Shown here in pieces: positions 1 to 44,269 of a stretch of 44,269 nucleotides of DNA. Source of the DNA: a virus. Under the pieces are notes generated by a model. It was not told where the DNA came from, searched no databases, and saw only the letters and a list, made by a program, of their open reading frames with translations. Position numbers and translations under genes: made by a program. The DNA lies in IMG/VR virus record IMGVR_UViG_3300010396_000023, positions 1-44,269 of that record. One strand, given 5' to 3'. The stretch's first letter is position 1, and every line of letters starts with the position of its first letter.

Positions 1-123
1 AAGTCGTAGGTAAGCCGGATGTGAAGCGTATATGCACCCTAGCAATGGCCCGGACGTTCTGGCCCACTCTGGACTCCCATTCCCAAACGGCCTTGATGTA
101 TTTCCACTTCGGAGACGCGGCAA
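1..123. repeat. Terminal direct repeat, left copy (identical to 44147..44269)
   Basis: The first 123 nt (aagtcgtaggtaagccggatgtgaag...cggagacgcggcaa) recur exactly as the last 123 nt of the window. The unique unit is 44,146 bp. Confidence 0.95.
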
Positions 124-4164: not shown

Positions 4165-4496
4165 AGCCCCCCACAATCCGTGAGGTCATATCCTCGATGG
4201 GCTATTGCTGCCCCAAGCTCTTCTTCACCATCTTCCCTTCCACCCTCACGGCGTCCCTCCGCTTGGGCTTCAGCCGCCGGGCCATCAAGTACGCCAAGCA
4301 AAAAGCCCGCACCGAGGGGTGTGCGGGCTGTGGGGGTTGCCAGTGGCCTATGCTGGCTGTACTAGAGCGCGCAGTGCAGCAACGCCGGCATCAGCTGAGT
4401 GATCCTCCACCGACAAGCCGCCCGGCCACTCCTCCGGCCGAATCACCGATAGTTGTCCGGCGTGGAGCCATAGGTGATCCCGAGGAGGATGACTAG
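4161..4496 (+). CDS. Hypothetical protein (uncertain ORF at the convergence point)
   Basis: An ATGA overlap with the upstream stop and a TAAGGAG 5 nt upstream favour translation. Against this, the last ~150 nt run antisense through the lipase-like gene and the ORF spans the late-operon terminator hairpin. Confidence 0.3.
   Translation: MKPPTIREVISSMGYCCPKLFFTIFPSTLTASLRLGFSRRAIKYAKQKARTEGCAGCGGCQWPMLAVLERAVQQRRHQLSDPPPTSRPATPPAESPIVVRRGAIGDPEEDD
4299..4329 (-). terminator. Intrinsic terminator of the leftward late operon
   Basis: A perfect 9-bp stem (agcccgcac 4304-4312 / gtgcgggct 4321-4329) with an 8-nt loop. On the minus strand it is followed by TTTTG, 19 nt downstream of the lipase-like stop at 4348. 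Confidence 0.7.
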
Positions 4497-13600: not shown

Positions 13601-14344
13601 TACATCGTGCGGGGTGAGGTTGTCCGGATTGCCAGTCTGTTCGGTATAGCGGTTGAGAATGTCTTCCGCGGTCTGGTTCCCAACCTTCCCCGACCGGAGT
13701 TCCTCCGGCGAGAGCTTGGCCCGCTCAAGAAGTGCAAAACGAGAGAACCCTAACGGTGCAAGGTTTATCAAGTCTCCTGCCAACACTTGAAGTTGTTGAG
13801 GGGATACTGTGCCGTGAGAAGCCGCTGCAACGTGAGTGCTTCCTTTGGTAAGTGCCTCATTGATAAGCTTGGTAACTTTTCCTACATCCGCATCCGAGTA
13901 ATCTTTTTTGTAGCCCATCGCATGCATGATGTGAGCGATAGGGGAGGTCGTATACTCCGTCACACTCTTGCGGATTGAAGCGCCTTCGGCCGTCTGGCGC
14001 TCTGCCTCCGCTTTAGACAATGGGAGGGAAGTGAAGGTCTCATAGGCTTTTCCGGCGAGGGTAGAGAGCAACCCACCGGGGGTACTCAGCAGCATATCTG
14101 CTAGTCCGGCAAGATCCTTCCCTGCGCGCTTGAGGAAGTGGGTGCTGGATTCCGCAGCTACATCCCCTAGACTCACCGAGGACTTACCCGCGAAAGGGTT
14201 AGATTGCAAGGCAGATAGCGGGATACTCTTCCCTGTGGGCGGTAGAGGGGGCTTGTTTACCTGCCCCGTCTCCCCCATGCCGGGAAGGAGAGCCACCCCC
14301 TGCATCTCCGCCGTCACATCGCCCAGCGAAATGCTCGCCATCAT
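10664..14344 (-). CDS. Large internal virion / DNA-ejection protein (T7 gp16 positional analogue)
   Basis: 1226 aa, the largest gene, lying after the smaller internal proteins and before the fibres. It has a central Gly/Ala-rich hydrophobic block (LLPVAAAATGAVVGAHL...GGLGGLAAAMA). I recognised no enzymatic motif. Confidence 0.65.
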   Translation of the reverse strand: MMASISLGDVTAEMQGVALLPGMGETGQVNKPPLPPTGKSIPLSALQSNPFAGKSSVSLGDVAAESSTHFLKRAGKDLAGLADMLLSTPGGLLSTLAGKAYETFTSLPLSKAEAERQTAEGASIRKSVTEYTTSPIAHIMHAMGYKKDYSDADVGKVTKLINEALTKGSTHVAAASHGTVSPQQLQVLAGDLINLAPLGFSRFALLERAKLSPEELRSGKVGNQTAEDILNRYTEQTGNPDNLTPHDVARKMEQTLTEKSDAEIHAEAKAYDLMKRGASLKEVLAARKNNPLVGEKLDEFMAKRREHSQTIQGDKDQPFAESEAKQHFDEAAAKGEHAHNLRQSARKAYLQDQKDFKRAGVEARYGKPFEASPKTRLSEGKVLGEEPLQGGPLPKPSALERAQAKIAAGRKFDLTAEEKIAWNKAPVPDLTGIKKGPATGTESPGGQSPMGGASTPPRPELPGSRPLLAGPEPAAPASRLPGGRQSGSVDMRTLLPVAAAATGAVVGAHLAEQEKLEGAILGGLGGLAAAMAPRYAARVGDQWGRALKTGVVTAGVAYGMSRLDKDHPIEGAVLGSLWGATHLLPKAKVPMVGAMSIDDLVNARNGAIAAQGREVVNTSWAMRTAVPDPARRAAVAEAVEKGSTRGLSPQEVKVYNAYKGFTRSFGEAAKDQGVLKDLVQNYVTHVVEREAQPLTKVQEVMDALFGGGERAMGGASPVTGFAKHRAYSTFAELEKALQGTGLKVKTKDIADLVDIYGQSMARAVENKRLFDNLKAAKEGGEGGVPFILPADKAPQSYETVVTPQLQGMKVHPDMAPALKFVAESYRPGYVTRGILGLSLAQKRLSTGMSLFHAQNLINAYVGASGLRSAKMLGDVNAALKTYREGGLGDVIDTGLRNGLRVERPMETDLAAGKKLGAAIDGLVNGTLGIKFSAFEKGMGAIESVQRETFDKLTWDYLHTGLKLALYTREFEKGLRDHPTWSKDEVARQVSSFVNDTFGGLDWYRVASETQTAIGRNIAMHLLSPKGRGALQILMFAPDWTLSTFRAMYKALPGSTAMPLTHNLHMKYVMRTALIWATLMNGYNLMASGHPIWDNKDPTKIEWRDGTTQQIAKHAMEGPEWLLNPRQTALNKLGVAIKEPLTQLLGVEYLSAEGKAPPMKSRMGHLAGAVLPLSVQTGAAPGRSLGETTKRAALSTLGMPVYRMSKAEREAAKAKSRYEHRRKRRGE

Positions 14345-15447
14345 TCCTCCTCGAGGTCGAAGCTTTGGGTACCGGGGTTCCAGGTACCCACCTGACCACC
14401 GGGGAGTTTGTAGGCCTGACCCGCCTTAAGGGTTTGGGCGGTGGGATTGGAAGGAAGATTGAGGGCGGATTTCCCGGTAGACGAGGCGACAGGTTTACCG
14501 GAACGATCAAAGTGTGTAACCTTGTGCCCTGTCCCCGGAACGTCCATCCCCATGAACTTGTAGCTGTCATTCAGTGTCTTAAACTGCCCCCTGGATTCTG
14601 TGAATGCTCGCTCCATCGCTGCATCGGCATCCAGACCAGGAGTCGTTTTCCTAATTGCGCGTGCACGAGATGCGATAGTGTAGGCGGCATTAGTGCGCTC
14701 CGCATCGGGTAGATCGGGAAAGGAGTCCTTCAACAGGTCTTCCGCATGGTCCAGTTCACTCTTCACCGGAGCCCCCATGTCCGCATTCCGCCCCCCTGGT
14801 TTAGCCAGCCTTGCCTCCCGCTCCTTTCGGAGCTGAAGGTCCTGCGTCAAGTACCCCTTACGGAACTCCCTGAAACTCTCAGCCGACGATGCGCTTTCGG
14901 CCCGCGTTTGGGCATTCATCTCGTCGATCTTGAGCTTCAGCTTATCTTTCAGCGTGAGGGTGGCTTGCTGCAGGTTAGCCACGAGTTGGGGGCTGTAGGG
15001 GAGGTTCTTGAGGGGCGAGGGGCGACCGGTCATGCTTTCGAACAGGGAATTGGCGGCATCCCATGAGGCCTGGTCGTTCACGTTCCCCAACAGCCCCTCG
15101 GCCATAGCCAGCTCCGCCTTGGCTGCGGTGGCCTGGGCCTGGAAAGTCCGACCCTGCGCTTGCGTTGTTTGGGCCTGCTTCAGCCGCAGCCCCGCCGCAT
15201 CCGTAGCCAACTTCGCCCCCGAGGCCGTCAACCCCGACTTCAGAGCCATGTTGGCCATATCCTCGAGCTGGTCCGCCGGCCCCTTTCCCGAGCCAGCCTC
15301 CTGCTGAGCAAGCTGAGCCATACGGGCCTGTTCCGCAAGCTGGGTAGCCATACTCGCATTGCGAAGCTGCTGACCCTGCAATTGCGCGCCCTGCATCATA
15401 TCCCCGAGGGCTGCGGAGGTTCCTTGGGCACTTCCGAAGATAGGCAT
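14341..15447 (-). CDS. Internal virion protein, Q/A-rich coiled-coil type
   Basis: Start trimmed to MPIFGSAQG (ATG at 15447, 1 nt after the upstream stop). The composition is A/Q/L-rich. The stop overlaps the ATG of the large protein (ATGA). Confidence 0.6.
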   Translation of the reverse strand: MPIFGSAQGTSAALGDMMQGAQLQGQQLRNASMATQLAEQARMAQLAQQEAGSGKGPADQLEDMANMALKSGLTASGAKLATDAAGLRLKQAQTTQAQGRTFQAQATAAKAELAMAEGLLGNVNDQASWDAANSLFESMTGRPSPLKNLPYSPQLVANLQQATLTLKDKLKLKIDEMNAQTRAESASSAESFREFRKGYLTQDLQLRKEREARLAKPGGRNADMGAPVKSELDHAEDLLKDSFPDLPDAERTNAAYTIASRARAIRKTTPGLDADAAMERAFTESRGQFKTLNDSYKFMGMDVPGTGHKVTHFDRSGKPVASSTGKSALNLPSNPTAQTLKAGQAYKLPGGQVGTWNPGTQSFDLEEE

Positions 15448-15448
15448 G

Positions 15449-16522
15449 TTAGAACCCCAATCCTTTGATACCGTACCCAAGTGCTCCAAGGGCAGACGAA
15501 GCGGCATTGTTACCCGAGGTCATTCCTTGCAACGCCGCTGCCGTACTTGCAGCCCCACTCGAAGTGAGTTGTTGGAGCTGTTGGACTTGCTGGTTGAAGA
15601 AATTCCCACCGTAGGCCTGGAGGGCCGCGGCCATGTTCCCAGAACCCTGATACCCCTGCGCAGCCATCGAGCGCTCAACTGCGTCCATCCCGGCTTGATA
15701 CCCAGGCATGGAAGTGATTGAAGAAGGATTCTTCATCAGGTTGTTCAGCATCGCCGCGTACTCGGGGCTGTACTGGCCCCCCGACGCCTTGAGTTGGTTG
15801 ACCAAATCGTCCATCTGGGAGGAGCGGTTGAGGCCGAATATCCCTGAACCAATGGAGAGAAGGGAACTGAGAGGGCCTAAAGTTCCACCACCCCCTCCAC
15901 CGCCCAGTCCTCCGAGCAGAGAGGCGAGGCCCCCTCCTCCGCCCCCGCTACCACCACCACCCAATCCCCCTAGCAGCGCGCCGAGGCCTCCGCCTCCACC
16001 TCCACCACTCCCTTCCCCTAGCATGGACATGGGATCGAAGCTGCTCAGCGGGTCCATACCGCCACCCCCGCTAAACAGGGAAGTGGGGTTGAAACTCCCC
16101 ATGCTTCCCATACTTCCGCCAGGGCCCCCTAGAAGCGACATGGGGCTAAATCCGCCCGTCGAGCCGCCACTACCGCCAAACAGACTGCCCAGCATACTAC
16201 TAAAACCTCCACCTCCCCCACTGGCACTGCCCCCGCCCGCACTGCCCAAAATGTCACTCAGGAAGCCTCCGCTCCCGCTGGAGCCAGCCGTACCAACCCC
16301 AGCGGCTCCAGCTCCCAGGGAGCTCAGTGCGCTACCCCCAAAGTAACCGCCCACCCCGCCCATTCCGGCGCCTTTGAGGATGTTTCCCCAGCCACCACCG
16401 TTCATGGCGCCGCCAAGCCCACCACCAATCGCGCCACCTGCAGCAGCGCCCATGGGGCCCCCGAAGTAAGCACCGACGAGAGTACCTGCAATCGGCAAAA
16501 TTGAACTAACGACGTGGCTCAT
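15449..16522 (-). CDS. Extremely glycine-rich virion protein
   Basis: 357 aa with runs such as GGGGGGGLGALLGGLGGGGSGGGGGG. The C-terminal ~110 aa have normal composition. An ATGA overlap links it to the GNAT stop. Confidence 0.65.
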   Translation of the reverse strand: MSHVVSSILPIAGTLVGAYFGGPMGAAAGGAIGGGLGGAMNGGGWGNILKGAGMGGVGGYFGGSALSSLGAGAAGVGTAGSSGSGGFLSDILGSAGGGSASGGGGGFSSMLGSLFGGSGGSTGGFSPMSLLGGPGGSMGSMGSFNPTSLFSGGGGMDPLSSFDPMSMLGEGSGGGGGGGLGALLGGLGGGGSGGGGGGLASLLGGLGGGGGGGTLGPLSSLLSIGSGIFGLNRSSQMDDLVNQLKASGGQYSPEYAAMLNNLMKNPSSITSMPGYQAGMDAVERSMAAQGYQGSGNMAAALQAYGGNFFNQQVQQLQQLTSSGAASTAAALQGMTSGNNAASSALGALGYGIKGLGF

Positions 16523-21055: not shown

Positions 21056-21089
21056 GATGGGCTCCTAAAGGGAATTGTTCGAAAAGAAA

Positions 21090-21117
21090 CCGGGAAACGA
21101 CGCACGCCGTCCCCCGG
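21090..21117. promoter_or_regulatory. CCGGGAAAC-N10-GTccCCCGG palindrome between the MCP and the next gene; attenuator-like on the minus strand
   Basis: The left half-site is exact, the spacer is 10 nt and the right half has 2 mismatches. On the transcribed (minus) strand the hairpin is followed by TTCTTTTC. A second direct variant, CCGGTAAAC, lies at 21114-21122. Confidence 0.5.
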
Positions 21118-21132
21118 TAAACCACCCACCAA

Positions 21133-29452: not shown

Positions 29453-29653
29453 TTAGTACCCCTCGCCCTTGGCCAGTCCCTCCGAAGCCATCTCGTGGTG
29501 GAGGCGGCATTCCTGCTGGGCCCAGGGCTGGGCTACCTCGGGCACCGGGTCGGGGGCCTGGCCCTTCCAGTCCTTCGAGGGCCGGGTCGGGGGCAAGCAA
29601 GCCTTCGGCTTATGCTTGGCTTTCAATGAAGCGTGCATCGACGTCTTGGACAT
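29453..29653 (-). CDS. Hypothetical small protein (uncertain)
   Basis: MSKTSMHASLKAKHKPKACLPP... The stop lies 1 nt before the next ATG. The 5' end overlaps the TerS-like gene by 44 nt (29 nt if the ATG at 29638 is used). Confidence 0.4.
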   Translation of the reverse strand: MSKTSMHASLKAKHKPKACLPPTRPSKDWKGQAPDPVPEVAQPWAQQECRLHHEMASEGLAKGEGY

Positions 29654-30092
29654 TATCCAACCCTCTCGCGTGGTGACGTTGAAGATCGACCAGGCGCTTG
29701 GCCAGGTCCTGAAGGTGATTTGGGTTCTGGGCGGGGGCCGCCGGCCCTTGGCCGATCCCAAGGCTCTTCGCTCCGAATTCCGCCGCCCGGAGAGCGATCA
29801 CATCGGGGATGAGGTCGGCGGGCTTAGCGAGCTTCTCCTGCACCACCTCAAGCGCCCGTTCCGTCACCGCTCGAATCCGATCTTCAATGGAGGCCGTGAG
29901 GGTCGGGTCTACAATCTCCGCCCGGCGGGCCTGTAACCTCGCCTTAAATGCATCCGACGACTTAATCATCGAGCACCAGGCCGCCGTGTAGCCGAAGTGA
30001 GCGGCCAGCTCCCAATTCGAGATGGCGGGGCGGGCGATGATCAGGTCAATCATCGCGTCGTGAGTGTATGAGACTTTGACTGGAGCGGGCAT
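29610..30092 (-). CDS. HTH DNA-binding protein, candidate small terminase subunit; first gene of the late arm
   Basis: The track ORF 29610..30596 is trimmed to MPAPVKVSYTHDAMIDLIIARPAISNWELAAHFGYTAAWCSMIKSSDAF..., which has an HTH-like segment. The upstream part of the track ORF is Pro/Arg/His-rich junk across the control region. Confidence 0.5.
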   Translation of the reverse strand: MPAPVKVSYTHDAMIDLIIARPAISNWELAAHFGYTAAWCSMIKSSDAFKARLQARRAEIVDPTLTASIEDRIRAVTERALEVVQEKLAKPADLIPDVIALRAAEFGAKSLGIGQGPAAPAQNPNHLQDLAKRLVDLQRHHARGLDNVQDVDARFIESQA

Positions 30093-30210
30093 GGCGGACC
30101 CCGGCGGGGTGAGAATGGGCCTAGGGTACGCGGGGCGGCCGGGCCGGGGTGGCGGCGGGGGAGGCAGGGGAGATTTACCGGGACACTTGAAACTGCCTAA
30201 AATTTTGTGA

Positions 30211-30252
30211 GAGGGGCAAATCAAATTTTCGACTGCAGCCACTTTGCCCCTC
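30211..30252. repeat. 10-bp perfect inverted repeat in the AT-richer core of the control region
   Basis: gaggggcaaa (30211-30220) and tttgcccctc (30243-30252) are separated by 22 nt containing aaatttt. Confidence 0.8.
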
Positions 30253-30309
30253 CCACCCCTTCGCGCGCGGGCAGGCACGCGGGCGCTCCCTGATGCGCGC
30301 GTCAGAGAG

Positions 30310-30470
30310 CACGCGTGGGCGCGTGCGTGGGTGGATGGGGGATGGGTGGGGCGGCGGGGATGGCCCGGGGGCGGGCGACGCGGGCCGTGGGCGGGACCGT
30401 GGGGGCGGGGATGGGTGAATGGGTGGGTGGGCCGTGCGGACGGCATGGCGGGGCCGTGGGCGGGTAGGGG
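30310..30470 (+). repeat. G-rich, G-quadruplex-prone tract with short direct repeats
   Basis: The plus strand carries many G3-5 runs with 1-5 nt loops, for example gggtggatgggggatgggtgggg at 30329-30351. There is an exact 14-bp direct repeat gggccgtgggcggg at 30382-30395 and 30451-30464. The motif gatggg recurs. Confidence 0.8.
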
Positions 30471-30482
30471 TTTGTCCCTACC
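30463..30482. other. 7-bp stem hairpin abutting the operator palindrome
   Basis: ggtaggg (30463-30469) and ccctacc (30476-30482) with loop gtttgt. Confidence 0.6.
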
Positions 30483-30508
30483 GGGAAACGGGTTGACGAG
30501 TTTCCCGG
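30481..30508. promoter_or_regulatory. Perfect palindrome CCGGGAAAC-N10-GTTTCCCGG overlapping the early promoter -35 (operator candidate)
   Basis: The 9-bp arms lie at 30481-30489 and 30500-30508. The spacer gggttgacga contains TTGACG. Confidence 0.65.
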
Positions 30509-30521
30509 GAGCACATACACT
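30493..30521 (+). promoter_or_regulatory. Sigma70-like rightward early promoter
   Basis: TTGACG (30493-30498), a 17-nt spacer, then TACACT (30516-30521). The first rightward ORF starts at 30552. Confidence 0.55.
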
Positions 30522-31151: not shown

Positions 31152-31249
31152 CTCCCGATGGCCCCCTCGCGGGGCCGGGTGCGTTGTGGGTGGGGAATTG
31201 GCCCGGTAATGTGCCACCATGTCATCATCCCATGACAGCAACAACGAAG

Positions 31250-31394
31250 CATCTGCTGCTCCGGGGGGTGCCCCATTTAGGAAATCCGGGACCCCCATAA
31301 AGGGTAGTCCTTACATATTTTTTTTTTATGATTACAAAACCCTTACGGACGCCCCAATTTGGGGAATCCGGGGCACCCCACGGAGCAGCAGGTG
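31250..31394. repeat. 25-bp imperfect inverted repeat (23/25) flanking an AT-rich core with a T10 run
   Basis: Arm 1 is catctgctgctccggggggtgcccc (31250-31274). Arm 2 is ggggcaccccacggagcagcaggtg (31370-31394). The centre holds ttacatatttttttttatgattacaaaa (T10 at 31318-31327) and direct AATCCGGG copies. Confidence 0.85.
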
Positions 31395-31496
31395 CTTGGT
31401 TATGGTTGTTAACGTGGTGTTGTCAATGAGGGTAATCCCCAATGGTGATACGGTTATCAACGTGTCACAATCGGGCATTACCGTATGGGAGGCACC

Positions 31497-31940
31497 ATGA
31501 CTAGCACTACTGACCGGGGCCGTCGGGCCTTTACGGACGAGCAGGCCGCGCAAATTAGGCAAATGTACGCGGGGGGAATGAGCCAAGCGGCGATCGCCCG
31601 CGCATTTAGAGTGAATTCCCAGACAATAGGGCGACTACTCCGAGGGGACACATATATCAACGGGACGGGGATGCAGGACACGCGGGCGACCGTGGCGGGA
31701 AAGTTTCGCCAACCCGATCTCAATGCGCCGAACGCGTCGATGGACCTCGCCCGGCGCATTCTTGCCGCAACCCCTGTGGATATTGCGGCATTGGGGGCAG
31801 TTGTGCCCACCGCCAATACAATCCCGTGGCAAAAAGCCCGCGCGTATTATGCGATCACGCGGGAATGGCCGGAAGGGTATACCCCCACCCCCGAGGATTT
31901 AGCGCACGTGGGGCTTGACATTCCCCCATCGAGCATATAG
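31497..31940 (+). CDS. HTH DNA-binding regulator
   Basis: Start trimmed to ATG 31497 (GGGAGG upstream). FTDEQAAQIRQMYAGGMSQAAIARAFRVNSQTIGRLLRG is a resolvase/sigma-region-4-type HTH. Confidence 0.7.
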   Translation: MTSTTDRGRRAFTDEQAAQIRQMYAGGMSQAAIARAFRVNSQTIGRLLRGDTYINGTGMQDTRATVAGKFRQPDLNAPNASMDLARRILAATPVDIAALGAVVPTANTIPWQKARAYYAITREWPEGYTPTPEDLAHVGLDIPPSSI

Positions 31941-33387: not shown

Positions 33388-33714
33388 ATGCCCCGCATCC
33401 CACCCGGCACAAAGCGGGTTGAGGTCTACCTCCCCCCTGAGCTTGCCTCCCGCGTGGAGGCTTTCCTCCGTTCGGACGCGTTGGGGAGGGTTCCGCACGG
33501 CTCGTGGAACGCCTTCCTCCTCCAGCGCGTGAATGAATTCTTTGCGTCCGCCAGACTACCCCTCGGTCAATATGAGGGGTTCGGGGCGGACGCCTGGGTG
33601 GGGGGACCGCCCGCTGCAATCCGCACCCTCGCGGCTCACCTCGCCCCCCACCGTCAGGGCTCACCCCTGATCGATGCCGCTTTCCCCGAATTGATGCCCC
33701 CATCGGGGGACTAA
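33388..33714 (+). CDS. Ribbon-helix-helix (CopG/Arc-like) protein
   Basis: KRVEVYLPPELASRVEAFL is a typical RHH N-terminal strand-helix. GAGGAGA RBS. Confidence 0.55.
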   Translation: MPRIPPGTKRVEVYLPPELASRVEAFLRSDALGRVPHGSWNAFLLQRVNEFFASARLPLGQYEGFGADAWVGGPPAAIRTLAAHLAPHRQGSPLIDAAFPELMPPSGD

Positions 33715-33746: not shown

Positions 33747-34064
33747 ATGCCGCACCCAGAAGTGTTGGTTGAGATGGATCTGACAAATGACATACGTTGG
33801 TACACAGTGAAGGGGAAACACTACGCCTTTTACGGTGCGACTCGCAGGCTGAGCGGCACTACTCCGAGCATCGCCGGAGAGGAGTCTCCTCCCTATCATC
33901 CAGGATGGAGCCTGTTTGTTGCGTGTGAAGCAGACTATCTCGAAGCTAAACCCCGCCTAGTCCCAGCCTACCCTCCGGCAGCCCCCTCTATCGAGGATCG
34001 CCCCGGCTTGCGCCCCGAATACGTCGATTGGGAAGCTCACCGCGCCTTCCTCCGGAGCCTGTGA
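33747..34064 (+). CDS. Hypothetical protein
   Basis: Start trimmed to ATG 33747 (AAGGAG upstream). TGATG coupling to the next gene. Confidence 0.55.
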   Translation: MPHPEVLVEMDLTNDIRWYTVKGKHYAFYGATRRLSGTTPSIAGEESPPYHPGWSLFVACEADYLEAKPRLVPAYPPAAPSIEDRPGLRPEYVDWEAHRAFLRSL

Positions 34065-34648
34065 TGACCCCCCGCGAACCCCTCCTCTGGCGACTCCTCG
34101 CCCGCGCGGTGTCCTCCACCCCCATCCGTTGGTGGATCATCCGGCGCGCCCTCCGCGCCCCCTACACCCATATCGGCCCCCAGGGGGATGTGTACATGGG
34201 TCGCTGGTGGGTGTTCAATTCCTATGGGCGGGATTACACTCCCCGTTGGCTCGGGCTCCCCTCCATCCGCCTTCATTCCATCAACCGGCCCGATCACGCC
34301 CCCCATCTCCACGATCATCCCCTCCGTTCCCGCGCCATCATCCTCCGGGGTGGGTACGGAGAGACTCGCTACGGGCGTCGCCCCTCCGGCCTATGGTGGG
34401 GACGGGGGGATACCTACTCTCTCCGTCCCGGCATAGACTTCCACAACATCTACGCGGTGGGCTCGGGCGGTGCGCTCACCCTCTTCATCACCTGGCCCCC
34501 TCGCGACGGGGAGTGCACAGAATGGGGCTTCCTGGTCGACGGGGAGAAGGTGGGACATTTGGAATACAACCGGAGGTTTGGCCGTGAGACGGACGTCCCC
34601 GGTAAACCCCTCAATTCGTTTCCCGGAGAATCCCATGCTAACTCGTAA
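34064..34648 (+). CDS. Conserved phage protein with His-rich metal-site-like motif (cupin-like?)
   Basis: Start trimmed to MTPREPLL. The segment RLHSINRPDHAPHLHDHPLRSRAIILRGGYGE recalls an LH...D...HDHPW..S.IL.G.Y.E family seen in many phages. Function is unknown. Confidence 0.6.
   Translation: MTPREPLLWRLLARAVSSTPIRWWIIRRALRAPYTHIGPQGDVYMGRWWVFNSYGRDYTPRWLGLPSIRLHSINRPDHAPHLHDHPLRSRAIILRGGYGETRYGRRPSGLWWGRGDTYSLRPGIDFHNIYAVGSGGALTLFITWPPRDGECTEWGFLVDGEKVGHLEYNRRFGRETDVPGKPLNSFPGESHANS
34599..34626. promoter_or_regulatory. CCGGtAAAC-N10-GTTTCCCGG palindrome overlapping the RBS of the 34635 gene
   Basis: It has one mismatch to the 30481 palindrome and an identical 10-nt spacing. The right arm runs into GGAGAA, and the ATG is at 34635. 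Confidence 0.55.
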
Positions 34649-34922
34649 ACTCACCCATCTCGAAGCCCACGCTATCGCTCACCGACTCCACCAGGCGGAG
34701 GAGATTGTGGCAGGCGTAGTAGCGGAACTGGCGGGGATGGAAGACAGCGTCACTCCGCAACCCCAAGCGGCCGAGCCGAAGGGGCTGACCGAAGCTATTG
34801 AGGCTTTGCAATGCCCCGAAACGCACTCGTGCTCTAACCCCGAATTATTCGAGCGAGGCTGGGAGATTGGAAGAGGCGCCGCTCTGGATATTGTCCGCGC
34901 CCTTCTCGCAAAAGGAGAATGA
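34635..34922 (+). CDS. Hypothetical protein
   Basis: Start trimmed to MLTRKLTHLEAHAIAHRL... (GGAGAA upstream). It overlaps the upstream gene by 14 nt. Confidence 0.55.
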   Translation: MLTRKLTHLEAHAIAHRLHQAEEIVAGVVAELAGMEDSVTPQPQAAEPKGLTEAIEALQCPETHSCSNPELFERGWEIGRGAALDIVRALLAKGE

Positions 34923-37123: not shown

Positions 37124-37638
37124 CCTGCAATGACCCGAATTGCATTGCCTGTACTTTCCAGGCCGCTCACCCTGAGGAGCAGCGCACCCACCTCATTTTC
37201 GCCGCCACTCGCCTCCTAAAGCTCGTAGTGGGGACGCTCGCGGAGACGAGTTTACGCATGGCACAGATTGAGAAGACGGTCAAGAGCGTGGGCATTGACC
37301 TAGAAGAAAATCCTGGCGTTCTTCAAACCAAATACAACGAGTTGTTCAATCGTATGCTTCGGCTGGAAATTGCAGACCAGGATTACGATATAACCGCAGG
37401 GTTAAAGGTTCTGTTCGCCCTCCTCCCCTCCGACGTGATGGCGGGTGCGTGGGAGTGCTATACCGCCAACATCACTCAGCGTGCTACAGAGGCCGACAAA
37501 GCGGATGAGGTGGAAGCTGCCCTAGCCAACGCACACAAGTTCTTTGATGACTTCGTGCGTACGGGGCACGCGTATCTGGAGGGTGTTTCCTCCGATATGC
37601 CCTCTGCCACAGCCCCTCACCCCACCACCCTCCAATGA
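37120..37638 (+). CDS. Hypothetical protein
   Basis: Start trimmed to MTCNDPNCIACTF... (ATGA coupling). 172 aa, helical. Confidence 0.6.
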   Translation: MTCNDPNCIACTFQAAHPEEQRTHLIFAATRLLKLVVGTLAETSLRMAQIEKTVKSVGIDLEENPGVLQTKYNELFNRMLRLEIADQDYDITAGLKVLFALLPSDVMAGAWECYTANITQRATEADKADEVEAALANAHKFFDDFVRTGHAYLEGVSSDMPSATAPHPTTLQ

Positions 37639-37889
37639 GGTCCACCATCATGGCCATTAAGCCTGATTACCCCACCTGCTCCACCTGCCGCCATTATTGG
37701 CCCCACGAAAAGGAATGCCGGGCACATCCGCCCCAGGTGACTATCATCATCGCCCCCCAGCCGGGAAACATTGCCACAGGCGGCCGTCCGGGGATGGGCC
37801 CCCTCCCCCTCGCGGCCTTCCCCTCCATCGGAGAACCTGGGAAGCTGGGTTGCTCGGAGCACACTCCGGCCCTCACCATTGCACGCTGA
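37635..37889 (+). CDS. Cys-rich small protein
   Basis: CSTCRHYWPHEKECRAHPP...FPSIGEPGKLGCSEH recalls a conserved phage 4-Cys family. It contains an exact CCGGGAAAC at 37761-37769. Confidence 0.55.
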   Translation: MRSTIMAIKPDYPTCSTCRHYWPHEKECRAHPPQVTIIIAPQPGNIATGGRPGMGPLPLAAFPSIGEPGKLGCSEHTPALTIAR

Positions 37890-39670: not shown

Positions 39671-40109
39671 CGGAATCGCCCACATCACCTGGACGGATGC
39701 CCGCGAGGTCGTGTGGGGGCATGCGGAGGTGTACTGCGCCGCCTATGCCCCCGCCGGAGGGTGGAGGTCCGCTTATTGGCCCTCCCGCCTCTATGTCTGC
39801 CCCCAGTGCGGCCAGGCCTGGATGCGGGAGACCTGGCGGCATTCCTTCCAGTACGCCTCCGATGCCGGGCCTCCCTGGGTGACGGTGGCCTCCCCCTGCC
39901 GGTGGCACGGCGGGGGCTTCCTCCTCGACCACCTCCATGCCTCCCTGGAGTCTTGCGACGCTGCAATCCTCCACCGGGAAACCAAACTTTACTTCGACCG
40001 ATACGACCATGAGCACACCGACCAGCACTACCCTTCCCTTAACAACTGGCGTCGTCCCGTCGAGCGACTCGACAAGTCTGACCTTGCGTGGCCCGAAGGT
40101 CTTGCTTGA
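39660..40109 (+). CDS. Hypothetical Cys/Trp-rich protein
   Basis: Start trimmed to MSISGIAHITW... It contains CPQCG and ends with a ~100-nt overlap onto the next gene. Confidence 0.5.
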   Translation: MSISGIAHITWTDAREVVWGHAEVYCAAYAPAGGWRSAYWPSRLYVCPQCGQAWMRETWRHSFQYASDAGPPWVTVASPCRWHGGGFLLDHLHASLESCDAAILHRETKLYFDRYDHEHTDQHYPSLNNWRRPVERLDKSDLAWPEGLA

Positions 40110-40917
40110 AGGCCCTACCGGCACCGGGAAGACCACCGCCCTTGGCACCGCCGCCGATTGGTACGCCAAGCGCGGCTGGCCCGTTTACGCCCTATTCACC
40201 GAGAACTCGACCGAGGTCTTCCGGGGCTACTGGACCGACCGGGGCAAGAAGAAGCCCGATAACGTCCACATCACCGACATGATTGTCAGGCCCACCACGC
40301 TCTCGTCTCTCATCGACGCAGCGGACAAGGTGGGCAAGCTGACCTACGAGTCCCTCACCAAGCTCGTTGACGCCAACCGTTCTGGAGACAACAATGCGTA
40401 CTGGAAGATCCTTAAGACCTGCGCGGATTTCACTGACTCGGACACCGGCGAACGCTTCGGGGGCCTTGAGACCTTTCCCACCGAAAGCCTTTTCATCATG
40501 GACTCCCTTTCGGAAACCTCGAACGCTGCGCTTAAGATGCAAGTCGGGTCCCGTCCCACAGCATCTCAGTCTGACTATCTTGTCGCCCAAAACAACCTCC
40601 TCAACTTCTTGCGCCTACTTACTCAAGGCACTCGTTGTGCGGTGGTCGTTACAGCCCACGTTGATCGGCTCGTTGACGAGCTCAACGGAGGAACGCGTAT
40701 TACAACTAAATCCGTAGGTAAGGCCCTGGCCTCTGACATTCCCCAGTTATTCAGCGATGTCATCATGACCACCCGGATGGGAACGGAGTGGACATGGGAC
40801 ACTGCAAACGCACAGGCCGACCTCAAGACCCGCAACCTCCCGGTAAACTCGAAGCTCAAGCCCGACTTCACCCCCCTTCTCGACAAGTGGTTCAGCCGGG
40901 CCCAGGGGGATAAGTGA
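40009..40917 (+). CDS. AAA_24 / Sak4-like RecA-fold ATPase
   Basis: Walker A VLLEGPTGTGKTT and Walker B-like LFIMDSLSE. A DUF669-like gene lies downstream. An alternative TTG start at 40084 would give the short N-terminus usual for this family. Confidence 0.75.
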   Translation: MSTPTSTTLPLTTGVVPSSDSTSLTLRGPKVLLEGPTGTGKTTALGTAADWYAKRGWPVYALFTENSTEVFRGYWTDRGKKKPDNVHITDMIVRPTTLSSLIDAADKVGKLTYESLTKLVDANRSGDNNAYWKILKTCADFTDSDTGERFGGLETFPTESLFIMDSLSETSNAALKMQVGSRPTASQSDYLVAQNNLLNFLRLLTQGTRCAVVVTAHVDRLVDELNGGTRITTKSVGKALASDIPQLFSDVIMTTRMGTEWTWDTANAQADLKTRNLPVNSKLKPDFTPLLDKWFSRAQGDK

Positions 40918-40992: not shown

Positions 40993-41169
40993 GTGGAATA
41001 TCGTATGCGTCCTGTTAATAATGGCTGGGTTGTCTACATCGACCCGGACACCCACGCCGCCCTCCCCTTCGGAGAATTCGTCTTCGACTCCATCCGGGAG
41101 ATGGCCGAGTGGCTCGCCCAGCGCCACGGTGAGGCCGGTCCCCGGAAGTTGATTGAAGATTGGCATTAA
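40993..41169 (+). CDS. Hypothetical small protein (58 aa, below the track cutoff)
   Basis: GTG at 40993 lies 5 nt after AAGGAGG, and an in-frame ATG is at 41005. ...MRPVNNGWVVYIDPDTHAALPFGEFVFDSIREMAEWLAQRHG... Confidence 0.5.
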   Translation: MEYRMRPVNNGWVVYIDPDTHAALPFGEFVFDSIREMAEWLAQRHGEAGPRKLIEDWH

Positions 41170-41197
41170 CCGGGAAACCCCTCACCGCATCCCCCGG
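41170..41197. promoter_or_regulatory. CCGGGAAAC-N10-aTccCCCGG palindrome upstream of the DUF669-like gene
   Basis: The left half-site is exact, the spacer is 10 nt and the right half has 3 mismatches but keeps the outer CCCGG. Confidence 0.45.
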
Positions 41198-41261
41198 TAC
41201 GTTTCAGCGAGCGCCCACCTCGCATTCAATGGGCACCCACTTTAACCTTTGGAGTCTCACC

Positions 41262-41720: not shown

Positions 41721-41729
41721 CCACCCTTT

Positions 41730-41749
41730 GGGAGGGCTTCGGCCCTCCC
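41730..41749 (+). other. Perfect 8-bp stem with TTCG tetraloop
   Basis: gggagggc ttcg gccctccc sits 10 nt after the DUF669-like stop (context TAACCACCC). There is no U-tract. Confidence 0.7.
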
Positions 41750-41762
41750 ACTCGGAGCCCCC

Positions 41763-41912
41763 ATGCACCACAAGCCCCACCTTTTCTTCCAAGCCGGTCG
41801 CTGGATTTGTGTTCACCGGGGACAAGCTTGGGGCGCAGGTACCACCCAACTGGAAGCCTACTGGAACATGCGCCGTTACCATACTCACACTCTCGGAGGC
41901 CTTCGTGGCTAA
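41763..41912 (+). CDS. Hypothetical small protein (49 aa, below the track cutoff)
   Basis: MHHKPHLFFQAGRWICVHRGQAWGAGTTQLEAYWNMRRYHTHTLGGLRG. GGAG lies 5 nt upstream. The stop overlaps the proposed GTG start of the methylase by 8 nt. Confidence 0.45.
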   Translation: MHHKPHLFFQAGRWICVHRGQAWGAGTTQLEAYWNMRRYHTHTLGGLRG

Positions 41913-43218
41913 ACTAATCCCCCTCACGGAGGTCGTTGTCCCCCCGGACCGCCAACGTACTTCCTTCGACCCGGAGTATATCCAAGAACTCGCCATCTCC
42001 ATCCGGGACAACTGCCTCATGCACGCCCCGGTGATGGACGAGAAAGGCCTGATCGCCGGGGAGTGTCGCCTCGAGGCCGTCAAGCTCCTCAATGAGATGG
42101 GCGAGGCCTTCTGGTACGATGGAGAGAAAATCCCCGAGGGAATGCTCCCCTACGTTTCGGTGAACGACTTGACCCTCGTCCAACGGTTTGAACTCGAACT
42201 AGAAGAGAACATTCGGCGGAAGGACCTCACCTGGCAAGAGCGCACCCGCGCCATCGCTCGACTCGCCGCCCTCAAGACCGAGATCATCACCGCTGAAACA
42301 GGTCGTCCGCCCACCACTCGCGAACTCCAATCCTCCATCCTCGAACTCGACGCGAAGGGGAACGCGAATGGCAAACTCCGCACCCATCTTGACCTGGCCC
42401 AGAACCTCGACCGTCCCGAAATTGCCAAGGCCAAGACCCAGCAGGAGGCCATCAAGACCCTCAAGCGCATTGCCCTCGCCGAGCAACACGCGAAGATCGC
42501 GGAATTGGCTGGGGAATCCTACACCGCTTCCTCCCACCAGCTCTACCACGCCGACGCGGAGGTATGGATGGGGGATGCAGCCCCCGAGCAATTCGATGTG
42601 ATCCTCACGGACCCTCCTTACGGGATGGGGGCGGATGACTTCGGGGACTCCGGCGGGAAGGCCGGTGGGGCCCACGGTTATAGCGACTCCGCGGAAATCC
42701 TCCAGCACATCCACCAGTGGTTCCCTGCCCAAGCCTACCGCCTCGCCAAACCCCAAGCCCACCTCTACGTCTTCTGTGATTTGGAATGGTTCAAGGAGTG
42801 GCGCGCGGCCCTAGCCCAAGCCGGGTGGAAGGTTTTCCGCACTCCCCTCATTTGGTTCAACCCTACCAAGTATCGCGCACCCTGGCCAGAGCACGGCCCT
42901 CAGCGCAAGTGGGAGATGTGCGTGTATGCGGTGAAGGGAGATAAGCCCGTCACCCGCCTATACCCCGACGTCATCACCTGTCAAGCCGACGAGAACCTTG
43001 GCCACGCCGCGCAGAAACCCGTCGCCTTATACACCGACCTCCTGCAGCGTTCTGCTCTTCCCGGCTCTCGCGTTCTCGATCCCTTCGTCGGCTCGGGCCC
43101 GATTTTCGAGGCCGCTCACACCCTTCATTGTACCGCGGTGGGGGTGGAGCGAGATGCTGTCCATTATGGCATCGCCACCGCCCGTCTAACGGGTCTTAGC
43201 CATGAACAAGATTCCTGA
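41905..43218 (+). CDS. ParB-like nuclease domain fused to beta-class N6-adenine/N4-cytosine DNA methyltransferase
   Basis: The ParB N-domain is IPLTEVVVPPDRQRTSFDPEYIQELAISIRDNCLMHAPV. Motif IV (DVILTDPPYG) precedes motif I (LDPFVGSGP). The proposed GTG start at 41905 lies 5 nt after GGAGG, whereas the track start at 41728 is a TTG with no RBS. Confidence 0.85.
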   Translation: MAKLIPLTEVVVPPDRQRTSFDPEYIQELAISIRDNCLMHAPVMDEKGLIAGECRLEAVKLLNEMGEAFWYDGEKIPEGMLPYVSVNDLTLVQRFELELEENIRRKDLTWQERTRAIARLAALKTEIITAETGRPPTTRELQSSILELDAKGNANGKLRTHLDLAQNLDRPEIAKAKTQQEAIKTLKRIALAEQHAKIAELAGESYTASSHQLYHADAEVWMGDAAPEQFDVILTDPPYGMGADDFGDSGGKAGGAHGYSDSAEILQHIHQWFPAQAYRLAKPQAHLYVFCDLEWFKEWRAALAQAGWKVFRTPLIWFNPTKYRAPWPEHGPQRKWEMCVYAVKGDKPVTRLYPDVITCQADENLGHAAQKPVALYTDLLQRSALPGSRVLDPFVGSGPIFEAAHTLHCTAVGVERDAVHYGIATARLTGLSHEQDS

Positions 43219-43872: not shown

Positions 43873-44269
43873 ATGTACGCCTATATATTCGACACTGAAA
43901 CTACCGGCTTCAACGAACCCCAAGTTATCCAGGCCGCTTCGCGCCGCCTTACTATCCAAGGAGACGAGGGCATTAACGCTGCAGCCTTTTACTGTCCCTC
44001 CAAGCCAATCGAGCTGGGTGCGAAGGCCGTCCACCACATCCTGGAGAGCGAGCTGATAGACAAACCCGCGTCGTCCGAGTTCTGCTTCAATGATGCTTGC
44101 CCTAGATGTACCTATCTAATAGGCCACAATATAGATTACGACTGGGAAGTCGTAGGTAAGCCGGATGTGAAGCGTATATGCACCCTAGCAATGGCCCGGA
44201 CGTTCTGGCCCACTCTGGACTCCCATTCCCAAACGGCCTTGATGTATTTCCACTTCGGAGACGCGGCAA
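43873..44269 (+). CDS. DnaQ/ExoX-like DEDDh 3'-5' exonuclease, N-terminal part (continues at 1..422)
   Basis: MYAYIFDTETTGF carries ExoI (DxE) and LIGHNIDYDW carries ExoII. The frame stays open to the window end and joins 1..422 in frame, giving 231 aa in total. Confidence 0.85.
   Translation, partial: MYAYIFDTETTGFNEPQVIQAASRRLTIQGDEGINAAAFYCPSKPIELGAKAVHHILESELIDKPASSEFCFNDACPRCTYLIGHNIDYDWEVVGKPDVKRICTLAMARTFWPTLDSHSQTALMYFHFGDAA
44147..44269. repeat. Terminal direct repeat, right copy (identical to 1..123)
   Basis: Exact 123-nt identity with the window start. Confidence 0.95.

Follow-up and report, generated by a model that had tools for sequence, protein, structure and literature searches.

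The window analysed here (the whole stretch of 44,269 nt) is a complete phage genome of ~44.1 kb, and it contains a dispersed set of short sites that we regard, with moderate confidence, as paired operators of a phage DNA-binding protein that is symmetric and oligomeric and would shut off the early promoter and act at the boundaries of gene modules. The conserved element is the 8-bp quasi-palindrome T-(A/C)-CCGG-(G/T)-A (TMCCGGKA), recovered from 8-10 uncultured phages that are related to the window. Its copies are paired, with exactly 24 bp from one CCGG core to the other and with 20-nt spacers that are not conserved. The pairs were found at six syntenic positions: the early promoter (flanking it or a short way upstream), two junctions within the early operon, the 3' end of the DUF3987 gene, the post-capsid terminator and the region upstream of a gene encoding a protein of 1226 aa.

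Abundance of the 9-mer

The original prediction had been that the 9-mer CCGGGAAAC is present in at least eight exact copies, with about one or fewer expected, and that it is arranged in 28-bp palindromes with a 10-nt spacer. All eight copies are indeed found at the coordinates and on the strands given for them, the copies within ORFs occupy three reading frames as had been claimed (arithmetic on the ORF list), and the excess persists when the pattern is searched against null models: dinucleotide shuffling gives an expectation of 0.58 copies (maximum of 4 in 100 shuffles), and under an order-3 Markov model CCGGGAAAC is the most over-represented 9-mer genome-wide (p=1.4e-7), with a value that was reached in 0 of 40 simulated genomes. 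The 28-bp pattern CCGGGAAAC-N10-GTTTCCCGG, searched with ≤3 mismatches, yielded 6 matches vs 0.07 expected, namely the five sites predicted before (0, 1, 2, 2 and 3 mismatches) and a sixth that had been missed (14474-14501). The strict palindromy did not stand: the sites at 21090 and 4118 score at least equally well as 24-bp direct repeats (CCGGGAAAC..CCGGTAAAC and CCGGGAAAC..CCGGGAATA, respectively), and CCGGTAAAC is a recurrent variant half-site. The exact copies, and the units that occur singly, are the following:

4118+, 21090+, 30481+, 30500-, 34618-, 37761+, 39974+, 41170+: exact copies of CCGGGAAAC
37761-37769, plus strand: single exact copy of CCGGGAAAC inside gene 37635-37889; position not kept in the relative Rel1
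39974-39982, plus strand: single exact copy of CCGGGAAAC, coding (His-Arg-Glu-Thr), with a partial CCGA at +24; Rel1 reads CAGCGCGAACTG
40838-40848, plus strand: single variant unit TCCCGGTAAAC, close to the 3' end of gene 39937-40917
30176-30186, plus strand: single unit TACCGGGAcac, in the divergent control region on its leftward side; the aligned position in Rel1 reads ATCCCGGTA

Three single copies are without conservation in Rel1. That chance, or a coding or compositional artefact, gave rise to the set as a whole is nevertheless hardly credible: the copies at 37761 and 39974, intragenic and not conserved, would fit such an origin, as would the overlap of one pair (pair 4, below) with conserved Gly codons, but it is contradicted by the shuffle and Markov nulls, by the three reading frames, by the intergenic copies and by a synteny that is kept across several genomes whose spacers diverged.

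Conserved unit and its spacing

As judged from the sequence comparison, CCGGGAAAC is an extended version, specific to the window, of an 8-bp site with two-fold symmetry, and the element at the level of the family consists of paired T(A/C)CCGG(G/T)A units in either orientation, not of a palindrome with 9-bp arms and a 10-nt spacer. Within 24 pairs from 8 phages the same preference is seen on both flanks of CCGG: T at -2 (34/48), A or C at -1 (41/48), G or T at +1 (47/48) and A at +2 (41/48). The spacers of these pairs carry almost no information content, and the two units of a pair are either inverted or direct with respect to each other. The modal CCGG-CCGG distance in the window is 24 bp (9 pairs vs a mean of 2.6), and the loci of the clade contain 34 CCGG pairs at 24 bp vs 12.9 at other distances; the density of TMCCGGKA is 2.2 per 10 kb in these loci vs 0.24 per 10 kb in the non-clade relatives. 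Among the members of the clade are the Logan contigs SRR33045641_2528, SRR33386892_123761, SRR17658160_38922 and SRR28285658_128160 and the ENA entry ZJ_forest4307553. Rel1 has no CCGGGAAAC; its own top 9-mer is TACCGGGAT, with 7 copies vs 0.19 expected, and TACCGGGA/TCCCGGTA rank among the most enriched 8-mers of four further relatives (L373, L374, L375 and L376). The 3' extension of the unit varies between close relatives (AAAC vs T[TC]).

A search for the palindrome at equivalent positions in related phages had been suggested, and here the comparison gave a divided result: paired units with 24-bp spacing are syntenic, and the recurring sites include the junction after the 34028 homologue, the 41170 site and the 14474 site, but the palindrome itself is not conserved. 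The exact 28-mer pattern had no match in IMG/VR, the INPHARED phages gave nothing useful in the way of near or distant relatives, and probing with the window protein 41728-43218 recovered none either. In the non-clade relatives, analogous paired motifs were sought by a generic scan for 6-mer pairs, which was too strict, the pairs of the window being unrecovered as well. The top k-mers of more distant relatives are without CCGG units; they comprise tail fibre coding repeats (L015), tandem repeats (L143) and DnaA-box-like clusters (L099). The pairs of the window and the predicted promoter at the first of them are:

30479-30510, no strand: pair 1, units TACCGGGA (30479-30486) and TCCCGGGA (30503-30510), CCGG cores at 30481 and 30505
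30493-30521, plus strand: predicted sigma70-like rightward early promoter (consensus scan), TTGACG (30493-30498), 17-nt spacer, TACACT (30516-30521)
34599-34626, no strand: pair 2, inverted, CCGGTAAAC-N10-GTTTCCCGG, at the junction of genes 34028-34648 and 34635-34922
41170-41197, no strand: pair 3, CCGGGAAAC-N15-CCGGTAcg, directly behind gene 40993-41169
4118-4150, no strand: pair 4, CCGGGAAAC-N15-CCGGGAATA, within the final codons of the DUF3987 gene (2929-4164) and shortly before the ATG at 4161
21079-21118, minus strand: pair 5, the post-capsid intrinsic terminator, with a stem of 13 bp, some of them G-U, a 4-nt loop and the tail TTCTTTTC
14469-14501, minus strand: pair 6, minus strand reads CCGGTAAAC-N15-CCGGGAAAT, inside the 3' part of gene 14341-15507

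Pair at the predicted early promoter

Pair 1 is a perfect 28-bp palindrome (CCGGGAAAC-N10-GTTTCCCGG) with, as had been pointed out for this copy, a -35 hexamer between its units, the TTGACG of TTGACG-17-TACACT. Close relatives share the predicted promoter, with the sequence TTGACA-17-TACACT/TAAACT in L371-L374 and TTGACG-17-TACACT in L377, and the orthologous pairs of these phages have the same placement relative to the -35 and -10 as that of the window, the right unit occupying the -35/-10 spacer throughout. With its place relative to TTGACR-17-TAMACT unchanged, the pair has inverted units in the window and direct ones in L371-L374. In L377 it reads CCGGAAAAC..GTTTACCGG, which would give an A/A mismatch in a stem, and the changes between the window and L377 are non-compensatory. 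The promoter-proximal pair of Rel1, L375 and L376 is located ~35 bp further upstream, where it flanks no obvious -35, and simple occlusion can therefore not be the universal mechanism. A consensus sigma70 leftward promoter, present in distant relatives, is missing from the window and from Rel1.

Pairs at other gene boundaries

Pairs 2 to 5 are all located at gene junctions. The site at 34599 had been described as running into the ribosome-binding site of the 34635 gene, and indeed the right core of pair 2 overlaps the GGAG and the pair ends 8 nt upstream of the ATG; at the syntenic junction a pair is found in L371, L372, L373, L374, L375 and L376, and in the latter two it is intergenic. The boundary position that had been assigned to the 41170 copy was recovered too: pair 3 begins 1 nt past the stop codon of 40993-41169, and behind it come an intergenic element that is conserved and then the next gene. 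The pair is kept in L371 (18161) and L375 (17370), and absent in Rel1. At the position orthologous to pair 4, Rel1 has TACCGGTAA-N15-CCCGGTAAC; the cores of this pair encode xGK..xGN, and coding constraint therefore confounds its conservation. Pair 6, which precedes the 1226-aa gene by about 130-160 nt, is shared with L377 (16549) and has a syntenic counterpart in L380 (17552).

Terminator after the capsid gene

Pair 5 is an intrinsic terminator and the other pairs are not terminators. The claim that the site at 21090-21117 follows the MCP gene and is succeeded by a T-run on the transcribed strand was borne out: the site is intergenic, the T-run is on the minus strand, on which the genes are located there, and the exact 9-mer at 21090 reads on the plus strand. 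Folding of the transcribed (minus) strand gives -22.3 kcal/mol (z=-4.05), with the tail UUCUUUUC. Within the seven sampled clade loci (L377, Rel1, L380, L381, L382, L383 and the window) the stem is made of the units, with cores 24 bp apart, and shows compensatory changes in its inner part, which were seen at this site only; the exact 28-nt span is kept in every sampled clade member. The site thus resembles any intrinsic terminator in being a GC-rich hairpin with a U-run on the transcribed strand, and differs in that its stem is built from a unit pair found genome-wide and spans a fixed 28 nt that termination does not need. Distant relatives also have hairpins 3' of the capsid gene.

The second reading offered in the original prediction, that conserved RNA stem-loops serving attenuation, processing or translational control are formed at the sites, stands for the post-capsid terminator only, and as a general explanation it is largely refuted and highly improbable. 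In its favour is the strong hairpin at 21090, retained with its U-run and compensatory inner-stem changes in all sampled clade members, and pairs 2 and 4 do adjoin ribosome-binding sites. The other five pairs, however, fold no better than shuffles on the transcribed strand (z -0.1 to -1.5), pairs 1 (in L371-L374), 3 and 4 are direct repeats and as such unable to base-pair, the arms changed without compensation in L377, the pair at the promoter precedes the predicted start site, and no Rfam family was matched.

Proposed operator pairs and alternative explanations

If the sites are operators, a phage-encoded DNA-binding protein would attach to each unit as a symmetric dimer, and two dimers, either as a tetramer or as a cooperative pair, would occupy one unit pair. 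Occupancy of pair 1 would exclude RNA polymerase and so shut off or autoregulate early transcription; at the other five conserved pairs, at the module boundaries, the bound protein would form a roadblock or control a local promoter, and the post-capsid pair has additionally been shaped into a terminator. An operator for a dimeric phage regulator had been one of the two functions proposed at the outset, and it is retained in this general form, since the units and their 24-bp spacing are syntenic while the hairpin potential is not, with the motif redefined as above. Among the points against the operators, a spacing of 24 bp sets the two units on different faces of the helix, and a roadblock inside the replication operon of a phage without detectable lysogeny genes has no obvious rationale.

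A phage regulator could also activate; from the pairs it would then switch on middle or late promoters downstream of them at the module boundaries, and the pair at the early promoter would be class-II-like. We consider this quite unlikely. The upstream location of the pair in Rel1, L375 and L376, where it does not lie over the promoter region, would agree with it, as would the position of pair 3 directly upstream of a conserved element that can be read as a weak TTTCAG-17-TTCAAT promoter, and the missing leftward promoter of the window and Rel1 implies that some activation step is needed. The right unit within the -35/-10 spacer (window, L371-L374) is, however, in a repressor-type position, pair 2 ends 8 nt before a start codon and leaves no room for a promoter, and no -10-like element was seen at a constant distance from the pairs. 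The pairs were also examined as ECF-sigma-like promoters (GGGAAAC-N16-CGGT), which was rejected: the distances to the start codons do not agree with one another, a 5' UTR would find no space behind pair 2, and no sigma factor was found among the scanned ORFs. The units may instead belong to the host, as sites for a host transcription factor or nucleoid protein or as adopted copies of a host repeat, which we hold to be unlikely. A clade-specific motif would also be predicted by a host switch, and the same 9-bp arms form a REP-like family in MAGs of the Holophagales/Acidobacteriota (6 contigs in one MAG, 3 in another). In these repeats the spacers are palindromes and a flank, GGAAGGGC, is conserved; neither holds for the phage sites, whose spacers show no conservation and no palindromy, and the REP-like family has only the arms in common with them. 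The matches of the exact 28-mer pattern in GTDB genomes (83 in total, scattered and mostly generic hairpin terminators) include no prophage relatives, those outside the Holophagales family being scattered single hairpins of which none is a phage relative, and the 3' extension differs between close phages (AAAC vs T[TC]).

Targets of a DNA transaction, i.e. of a ParB_N-N6/N4 methyltransferase, a nicking or homing endonuclease, recombination or packaging, are very unlikely. The phage does encode a ParB_N/N6_N4 DNA methylase (41728-43218) and a weakly GcrA-like HTH protein, and the CCGG core is a typical target of restriction/modification, but one exact pair spacing and syntenic gene boundaries would not be expected for targets of a methylase or nuclease, and packaging or origin sites should be clustered rather than dispersed. 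A GcrA/CcrM reading was rejected, the motif containing no GANTC.

Candidate binding proteins

Four phage proteins had been named as candidate regulators, of which the product of 33388 remains the best candidate for the putative binder. This protein and one of the others are:

33388-33714, plus strand: best candidate binder, 108-aa early protein with an RHH-like N-terminus (PPGTKRVEVYLP, helix, G-S, helix)
31485-31940, plus strand: alternative candidate binder, clade-specific HTH protein (HTH_38/HTH_7, weak GcrA-like match)

The XRE-type HTH proteins (35589 and 43202) are missing from the sequenced 92% of Rel1 and are disfavoured because Rel1 keeps the sites. The 31485 protein is disfavoured because its recognition helix does not co-vary with the sites: it is identical in the window and Rel1 despite their differing unit extensions, and L371 and L372 have different helices with identical promoter pairs. 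The RHH-like N-terminus of the 33388 protein is invariant in the clade and variable outside it, and the family shows a beta-alpha-(G-S)-alpha pattern with a variable strand. Matches to Pfam RHH_5 were obtained for 2 of 20 homologues and are weak (best E=0.005); the window protein itself had no significant match in Pfam and PDB profile searches, its AlphaFold monomer model (pLDDT 70, N-terminus unstructured) gave no Foldseek match, and comparison with NikR gave no sequence or structural match. We put it forward tentatively, from these weak indications in its sequence. No integrase or CI-type repressor and no sigma factor were found among the ORFs scanned. A resemblance of the sites to parS/ParB or KorA operators (GTTT..AAAC) was discarded, being a likeness of 4-5 nt only, with KORA Pfam matches at E >= 0.04.

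A more far-reaching reading, which we regard as rather doubtful, is that the 33388 family constitutes a new regulator family, RHH-like with an oligomerisation domain, that reads orientation-independent 8-bp units at 24 bp; some six pairs would then couple shut-off of the early promoter, roadblocks at boundaries and a protein-tunable capsid terminator, with the strand residues, which would vary between clades, as the determinant of specificity. If true, a podophage clade that is apparently non-temperate and depends on the host RNA polymerase would possess a genome-wide 'punctuation' system.

Comparison with known systems

Dispersed operator sets are known from a few cultured temperate phages (P1 and the Cluster A mycobacteriophages), and the present case concerns an abundant family of uncultured environmental phages with no detectable lysogeny module. 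The sites appear to be regulatory and, on present evidence, to involve no new principle: they are known in kind from the C1 operators of P1 and the stoperators of mycobacteriophages, and the units paired at 24 bp would be a variant of these. The comparative data define the cis element (unit, spacing and six syntenic positions) together with a short list of candidate proteins, and the system is therefore directly testable. If confirmed, it would show how genes can be timed in a phage that relies on the host RNA polymerase and has no polymerase of its own, and it would provide an orthogonal operator/regulator pair of simple, tunable architecture.

The dimers of lambda CI bind cooperatively at operators that are 24 bp apart, centre to centre, and overlap an early promoter (OR1-OR2 and OL1-OL2); the lambda operators are 17 bp long and clustered at only two control regions, where they serve the lysogeny switch. 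Two symmetric sites at 24 bp and an early promoter are common to both cases, with cooperativity putative here, whereas the units of the present phages are 8 bp long and dispersed.

The stoperators of the Cluster A mycobacteriophages (L5, Bxb1 repressor) are asymmetric 13-mers that are bound by a monomer, the bound repressor stopping RNA polymerase during elongation. A genome has >20 of them, oriented with transcription, and function requires this orientation. Both systems consist of one short sequence that recurs genome-wide in short intergenic spaces and at gene ends, with one copy over the early lytic promoter and diverged sites in close relatives (PMC9283540; see also PMC6550527). The units described here differ in being two-fold symmetric and arranged in 24-bp pairs (~6 pairs and a few singles), in pairs that are inverted or direct, with an orthologous promoter pair that flips between the window and L371-L374, and in that no immunity repressor or integrase was found among the scanned ORFs. 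The C1 repressor of P1 has 22 operators dispersed over the phage genome (PMC8546580), and a single regulator, putative in our case, with many widely scattered operators would be common to both; the P1 operators are asymmetric 17-mers, mostly single, and the repressor of P1, a temperate plasmid prophage, is known.

The RHH tetramer of NikR binds GTATGA-N16-TCATAC, a site of 28 bp, with two RHH dimers that are spaced by a tetramerisation domain (PMC7055735). The outline of CCGGGA-N16-TCCCGG agrees with that of this site, CCGGKA-N16-TMCCGG likewise spans 28 bp with sub-sites ~2 helical turns apart, and the candidate 33388 protein has, as predicted from its sequence, an RHH-like N-terminus and an extra C-terminal domain. 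The sub-sites of NikR are halves of one palindrome, whereas the units of the present phages are each palindromic and their pairs are sometimes direct.

Over-representation of the motif and definition of the unit

The eight exact copies of CCGGGAAAC/GTTTCCCGG claimed in the original prediction were all found at the positions given for them; dinucleotide shuffles of the window predict 0.58. CCGGGAAAC is the top over-represented 9-mer of the genome under an order-3 Markov model (p=1.4e-7), and a 9-mer as extreme occurred in 0 of 40 simulated genomes. A search for CCGGGAAAC-N10-GTTTCCCGG with ≤3 mismatches gave six matches (0.07 expected): the five palindromic sites already predicted and an unlisted one at 14474-14501. 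Copies of the 9-mer with one mismatch showed no overall enrichment (21 versus 17.2 expected), the variant CCGGTAAAC was found four times, and the distance from CCGG to CCGG in the window had its mode at 24 (9 versus a mean of 2.6). Chance is effectively excluded as the source of the motif.

No close relatives were found among deposited phages; the phage belongs to a very large uncultured family. Its closest IMG/VR relative (Rel1, 46 kb) was reassembled from the contigs L001, L081 and L308, closer relatives in public assemblies were collected via homologues of the early protein 33388 (product of gene 33388-33714, + strand), and further ones via those of the capsid gene and of the gene next to it (L-numbers denote their loci or contigs). 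Rel1 holds zero copies of CCGGGAAAC; its own top over-represented 9-mer is TACCGGGAT (found 7 times in 19.5 kb, 0.19 expected), which occurs in the capsid terminator stem, adjoining the leftward control region, and as direct pairs just upstream of the early promoter and at an early-gene junction. TACCGGGA/TCCCGGTA rank among the top enriched 8-mers of L373, L374, L375 and L376. Positional conservation was borne out at the level of the cores: in all of these closer relatives, pairs of CCGG cores exactly 24 bp apart are found at matching genomic positions.

A consensus was derived from 24 pairs of eight phages, anchored on the CCGG cores. The 20-nt spacer between the cores carries almost no information, and the core flanks are alike on both sides (T at -2, A/C at -1, G/T at +1, A at +2). 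Because both flanks share these preferences, we define the unit as the 8-bp symmetric consensus T-M-CCGG-K-A; the window's CCGG(G/T)AAAC is this unit with a lineage-specific 3' extension, the extension in Rel1 being T(T/C). In the clade, i.e. the related uncultured phages that carry paired units, 34 pairs occur at 24 bp versus 12.9 at other distances, and units occur at 2.2 per 10 kb versus 0.24 in non-clade relatives of shared genome architecture; these statistics support the paired-unit definition.

Genome setting and syntenic pairs

The 123 nt at the start of the window (1-123) are identical to those at its end (44147-44269), an overlap which shows that the window is a complete phage genome, ~44.1 kb (about 44,146 bp) long, assembled as a circle. 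Neither an integrase or CI-type repressor nor a tRNA or Rfam family was detected in the window. Its genes are arranged as follows:

~30540, across the window end, to ~4500, + strand: block that includes the early genes and encodes a PD-(D/E)XK nuclease, AAA ATPase, ParB_N/N6_N4 methylase, UDG-PolA fusion and DUF3987 protein
30095 down to ~4350, - strand: structural and lysis genes (large terminase, portal, capsid, GH108 endolysin)

At 4304-4329 (- strand) the + and - transcription units converge on a strong, T-tailed hairpin (AGCCCGCAC..GTGCGGGCT TTTTG) that contains no CCGG unit; since it lies inside the mechanically listed ORF 4161-4496, the extent of that ORF is doubtful.

Six pair sites are syntenic:

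Site 1, early promoter, window: TACCGGGAAAC-ggg-TTGACG-a-GTTTCCCGGGAG, then TACACT
Site 1, L377: CCGGAAAAC-agg-TTGACG-g-GTTTACCGGGAAC
Site 1, L371-L374: TTACCGGGAAAC-gac-TTGACA-cggc-TACCGGGAATG, then TACACT or TAAACT
Site 2, junction after the 34028 homologue: pair inverted in all six relatives sampled
Site 3, 41170, directly after a stop codon: conserved in L371 and L375
Site 4, DUF3987 gene end: pair found in the window and in Rel1
Site 5, capsid terminator: stem is the unit pair in the window, L377, Rel1, L380, L381, L382 and L383
Site 6, 14469-14501, within the gene that precedes the 1226-aa gene: shared with L377 and L380

At site 1 the window's perfect palindrome lies within the divergent control region, surrounding the -35 hexamer of a promoter-like element (TTGACG-17-TACACT). 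Both promoter hexamers and both cores keep the same register across the window, L377 and L371-L374. The right unit, inverted in the window, has the direct orientation in L371-L374; Rel1, L375 and L376 carry a direct TACCGGGAT pair ~35 bp further upstream. The junction pair, which is intergenic in L375 and L376, ends 8-18 nt upstream of the next start codon. The cores of the DUF3987 pair encode a conserved xGK..xGN tail, so that its conservation may reflect coding constraint. The pair at 41170 is missing from Rel1, in which the single copies 37761 and 39974 are not conserved either. Just downstream of pair 3 there is a conserved intergenic element, GAGCGAGCGCCCACCTCGCAYTCAATGGGCA (window 41207-41237, also in L371), which is present in Rel1 (contig ~24330-24360) although pair 3 is not; it can be read as a putative weak promoter (TTTCAG-17-TTCAAT) or another binding site.

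RNA structure versus protein binding

The sites had been proposed to act as an operator for a dimeric regulator or as an RNA stem-loop. On the transcribed strand a single site folds into a strong hairpin, 21118-21089 (- strand; 13 pairs including G-U, -22.3 kcal/mol, z=-4.05), which is followed by UUCUUUUC and is the intrinsic terminator directly after the capsid gene. The remaining sites fold no better than shuffles (z -0.1 to -1.5), half-site changes are uncompensated (the arms at 34599 are CCGGT.. versus ..CCCGG, and at 4118 the right arm is GTTAACCGG), and the promoter arms of L377 would form an A/A mismatch in a stem, so that the stem-loop holds for the capsid terminator only and a general RNA-structure role is effectively excluded. 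In all seven clade loci the cores of this terminator are 24 bp apart and the inner stem shows compensatory changes; unrelated hairpins follow the capsid gene in L384, whose capsid is 86% identical, and in more distant relatives. The constant 28-nt span at these seven loci, unneeded for termination, points to a second constraint; here the inverted pair has been extended into a real terminator. In L382 an inserted Endonuclease_7 (homing-endonuclease-like) gene (3933-4370) separates the terminator pair, itself intact, from the stop codon of the capsid gene.

Since the short symmetric units are conserved, their spacing is exact, their orientation is indifferent and the spacers are not conserved, we consider the pairs most likely to be protein-binding sites rather than RNA structures. 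The operator proposal is retained in this form, its conserved element being the symmetric 8-bp unit and not the 9-mer/N10 palindrome. The symmetry suggests that each unit would bind one dimer, and the fixed 24 bp that each pair would hold a tetramer or a cooperative dimer pair. A pair that brackets the -35 and fills the promoter spacer, as in the window, L377 and L371-L374, occupies a repressor-type position, from which we infer early transcription shut-off or autoregulation; the other sites might serve as roadblocks or in local control. Regulatory sign, oligomeric state and the identity of the binding protein are all inferences.

The same protein-binding model may apply with an activator instead of a repressor, or a host protein may bind the units. 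A REP-like repeat family, (GGAAGGGC)CCGGGAAACCCAnnnnTGGGTTTCCCGG, occurs in many contigs of a few Holophagales/Acidobacteriota MAGs (L162, L171, L173, L200, L201, L186, L209, L223); it has the 9-bp arms in common with the phage motif but not the architecture, and the common arms may be coincidence or a faint hint of the host. Methylation, nicking or packaging targets are an unlikely reading, because the units are paired, syntenic and associated with gene boundaries. The closest analogues are the dispersed P1 C1 operators (22 asymmetric 17-mers; PMC8546580) and the Cluster A mycobacteriophage operator/stoperator sets (>20 asymmetric 13-mers, monomer-bound and orientation-dependent; PMC9283540), which likewise have one site over an early promoter, others at gene boundaries, and lineage-specific site variants. 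Unlike in these sets, however, the units are paired at a fixed spacing, one pair doubles as a terminator, and asymmetry, orientation dependence and a temperate repressor are absent, so that the paired units belong to neither family.

Candidate binding proteins

Several proteins had been put forward as binders. The XRE-type proteins 35589 and 43202 are disfavoured, being missing from the sequenced 92% of Rel1, where the sites persist. The clade-specific HTH protein of gene 31485-31940 (+ strand) is disfavoured as well: the window and Rel1, with different unit extensions, have an identical recognition helix, whereas that of L371 differs from that of L372 although the two share the same promoter pair. 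The best candidate, at low confidence, is 33388 (108 aa), which is found in every clade member and combines the beta-strand/helix/G-S/helix pattern typical of ribbon-helix-helix (RHH) proteins with an additional domain at the C-terminus. At the N-terminus, PPGTKRVEVYLP does not vary within the clade; the equivalent strand is different in all distant homologues, two of which match Pfam RHH_5 (best E=0.005). Family and PDB searches with the window's 33388 protein gave nothing significant, and no structural neighbour was found for its monomer model (pLDDT 70). In the NikR operator, GTATGA-N16-TCATAC, an RHH tetramer reads two sub-sites in a 28-bp frame (PMC7055735). In a distant sub-group (L336 2571, L337/L338 3618) a CCGG-N20-CCGG pair (CCGGCGATAAT..TAACCGGCC) lies directly upstream of the phages' own 33388 homologue, which would be compatible with autoregulation by this family, if too thin to count as evidence.

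Other elements of the control regions

A small conserved palindrome, TAGGGGTTTGTCCCTA (window 30464-30480, Rel1 contig 13852-13867, L228), abuts the promoter pair, upstream of it in the window and downstream in Rel1, L375 and L376, and is duplicated in L228 with the copies 29 bp apart; a second regulator might bind here, e.g. HTH protein 31485, the helix of which the window and Rel1 have in common. The region 30207-30470 contains an inverted repeat, GTGAGAGGGGCAAA-N22-TTTGCCCCTCCCAC, and, after it, a G-rich stretch of ~170 nt with direct repeats (GGGCCGTGGGCGGG and GGGGATGGGTG, both at 69-bp intervals). The sequence TTTGCCCCTCCC is kept family-wide and the contigs of many relatives stop near it, so that it may mark a genome end or a packaging or replication site. 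The 170-nt intergenic region 31236-31405 folds into a very long hairpin (outer stem ~27 bp, -89 kcal/mol, z=-9.1) around two ATCCGGG(A/G) motifs and a T10 run. The region is also conserved in Rel1, matches no Rfam family and could serve as an origin, as a terminator/insulator or as an RNA of unknown type.

In the distant relatives L229, L231, L237/L238, L243 and L084, Sigma-54-type promoters (TGGCAC-N5-TTGCA) precede the rightward early genes, upstream of the homologue of window 29610-30095, and the leftward structural operon has a consensus Sigma-70 promoter (TTGACA-17-TATAAT). Upstream of the Sigma-54-type promoters lies an IHF-like site (AATCAATGGGTTA), together with a palindrome, TGACGCAAnTTGCGTCA, present twice at a distance of ~21 bp; the two copies resemble sites for an enhancer-binding protein. 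In the window clade this arrangement is replaced by the Sigma-70-like early promoter and the CCGG pairs.
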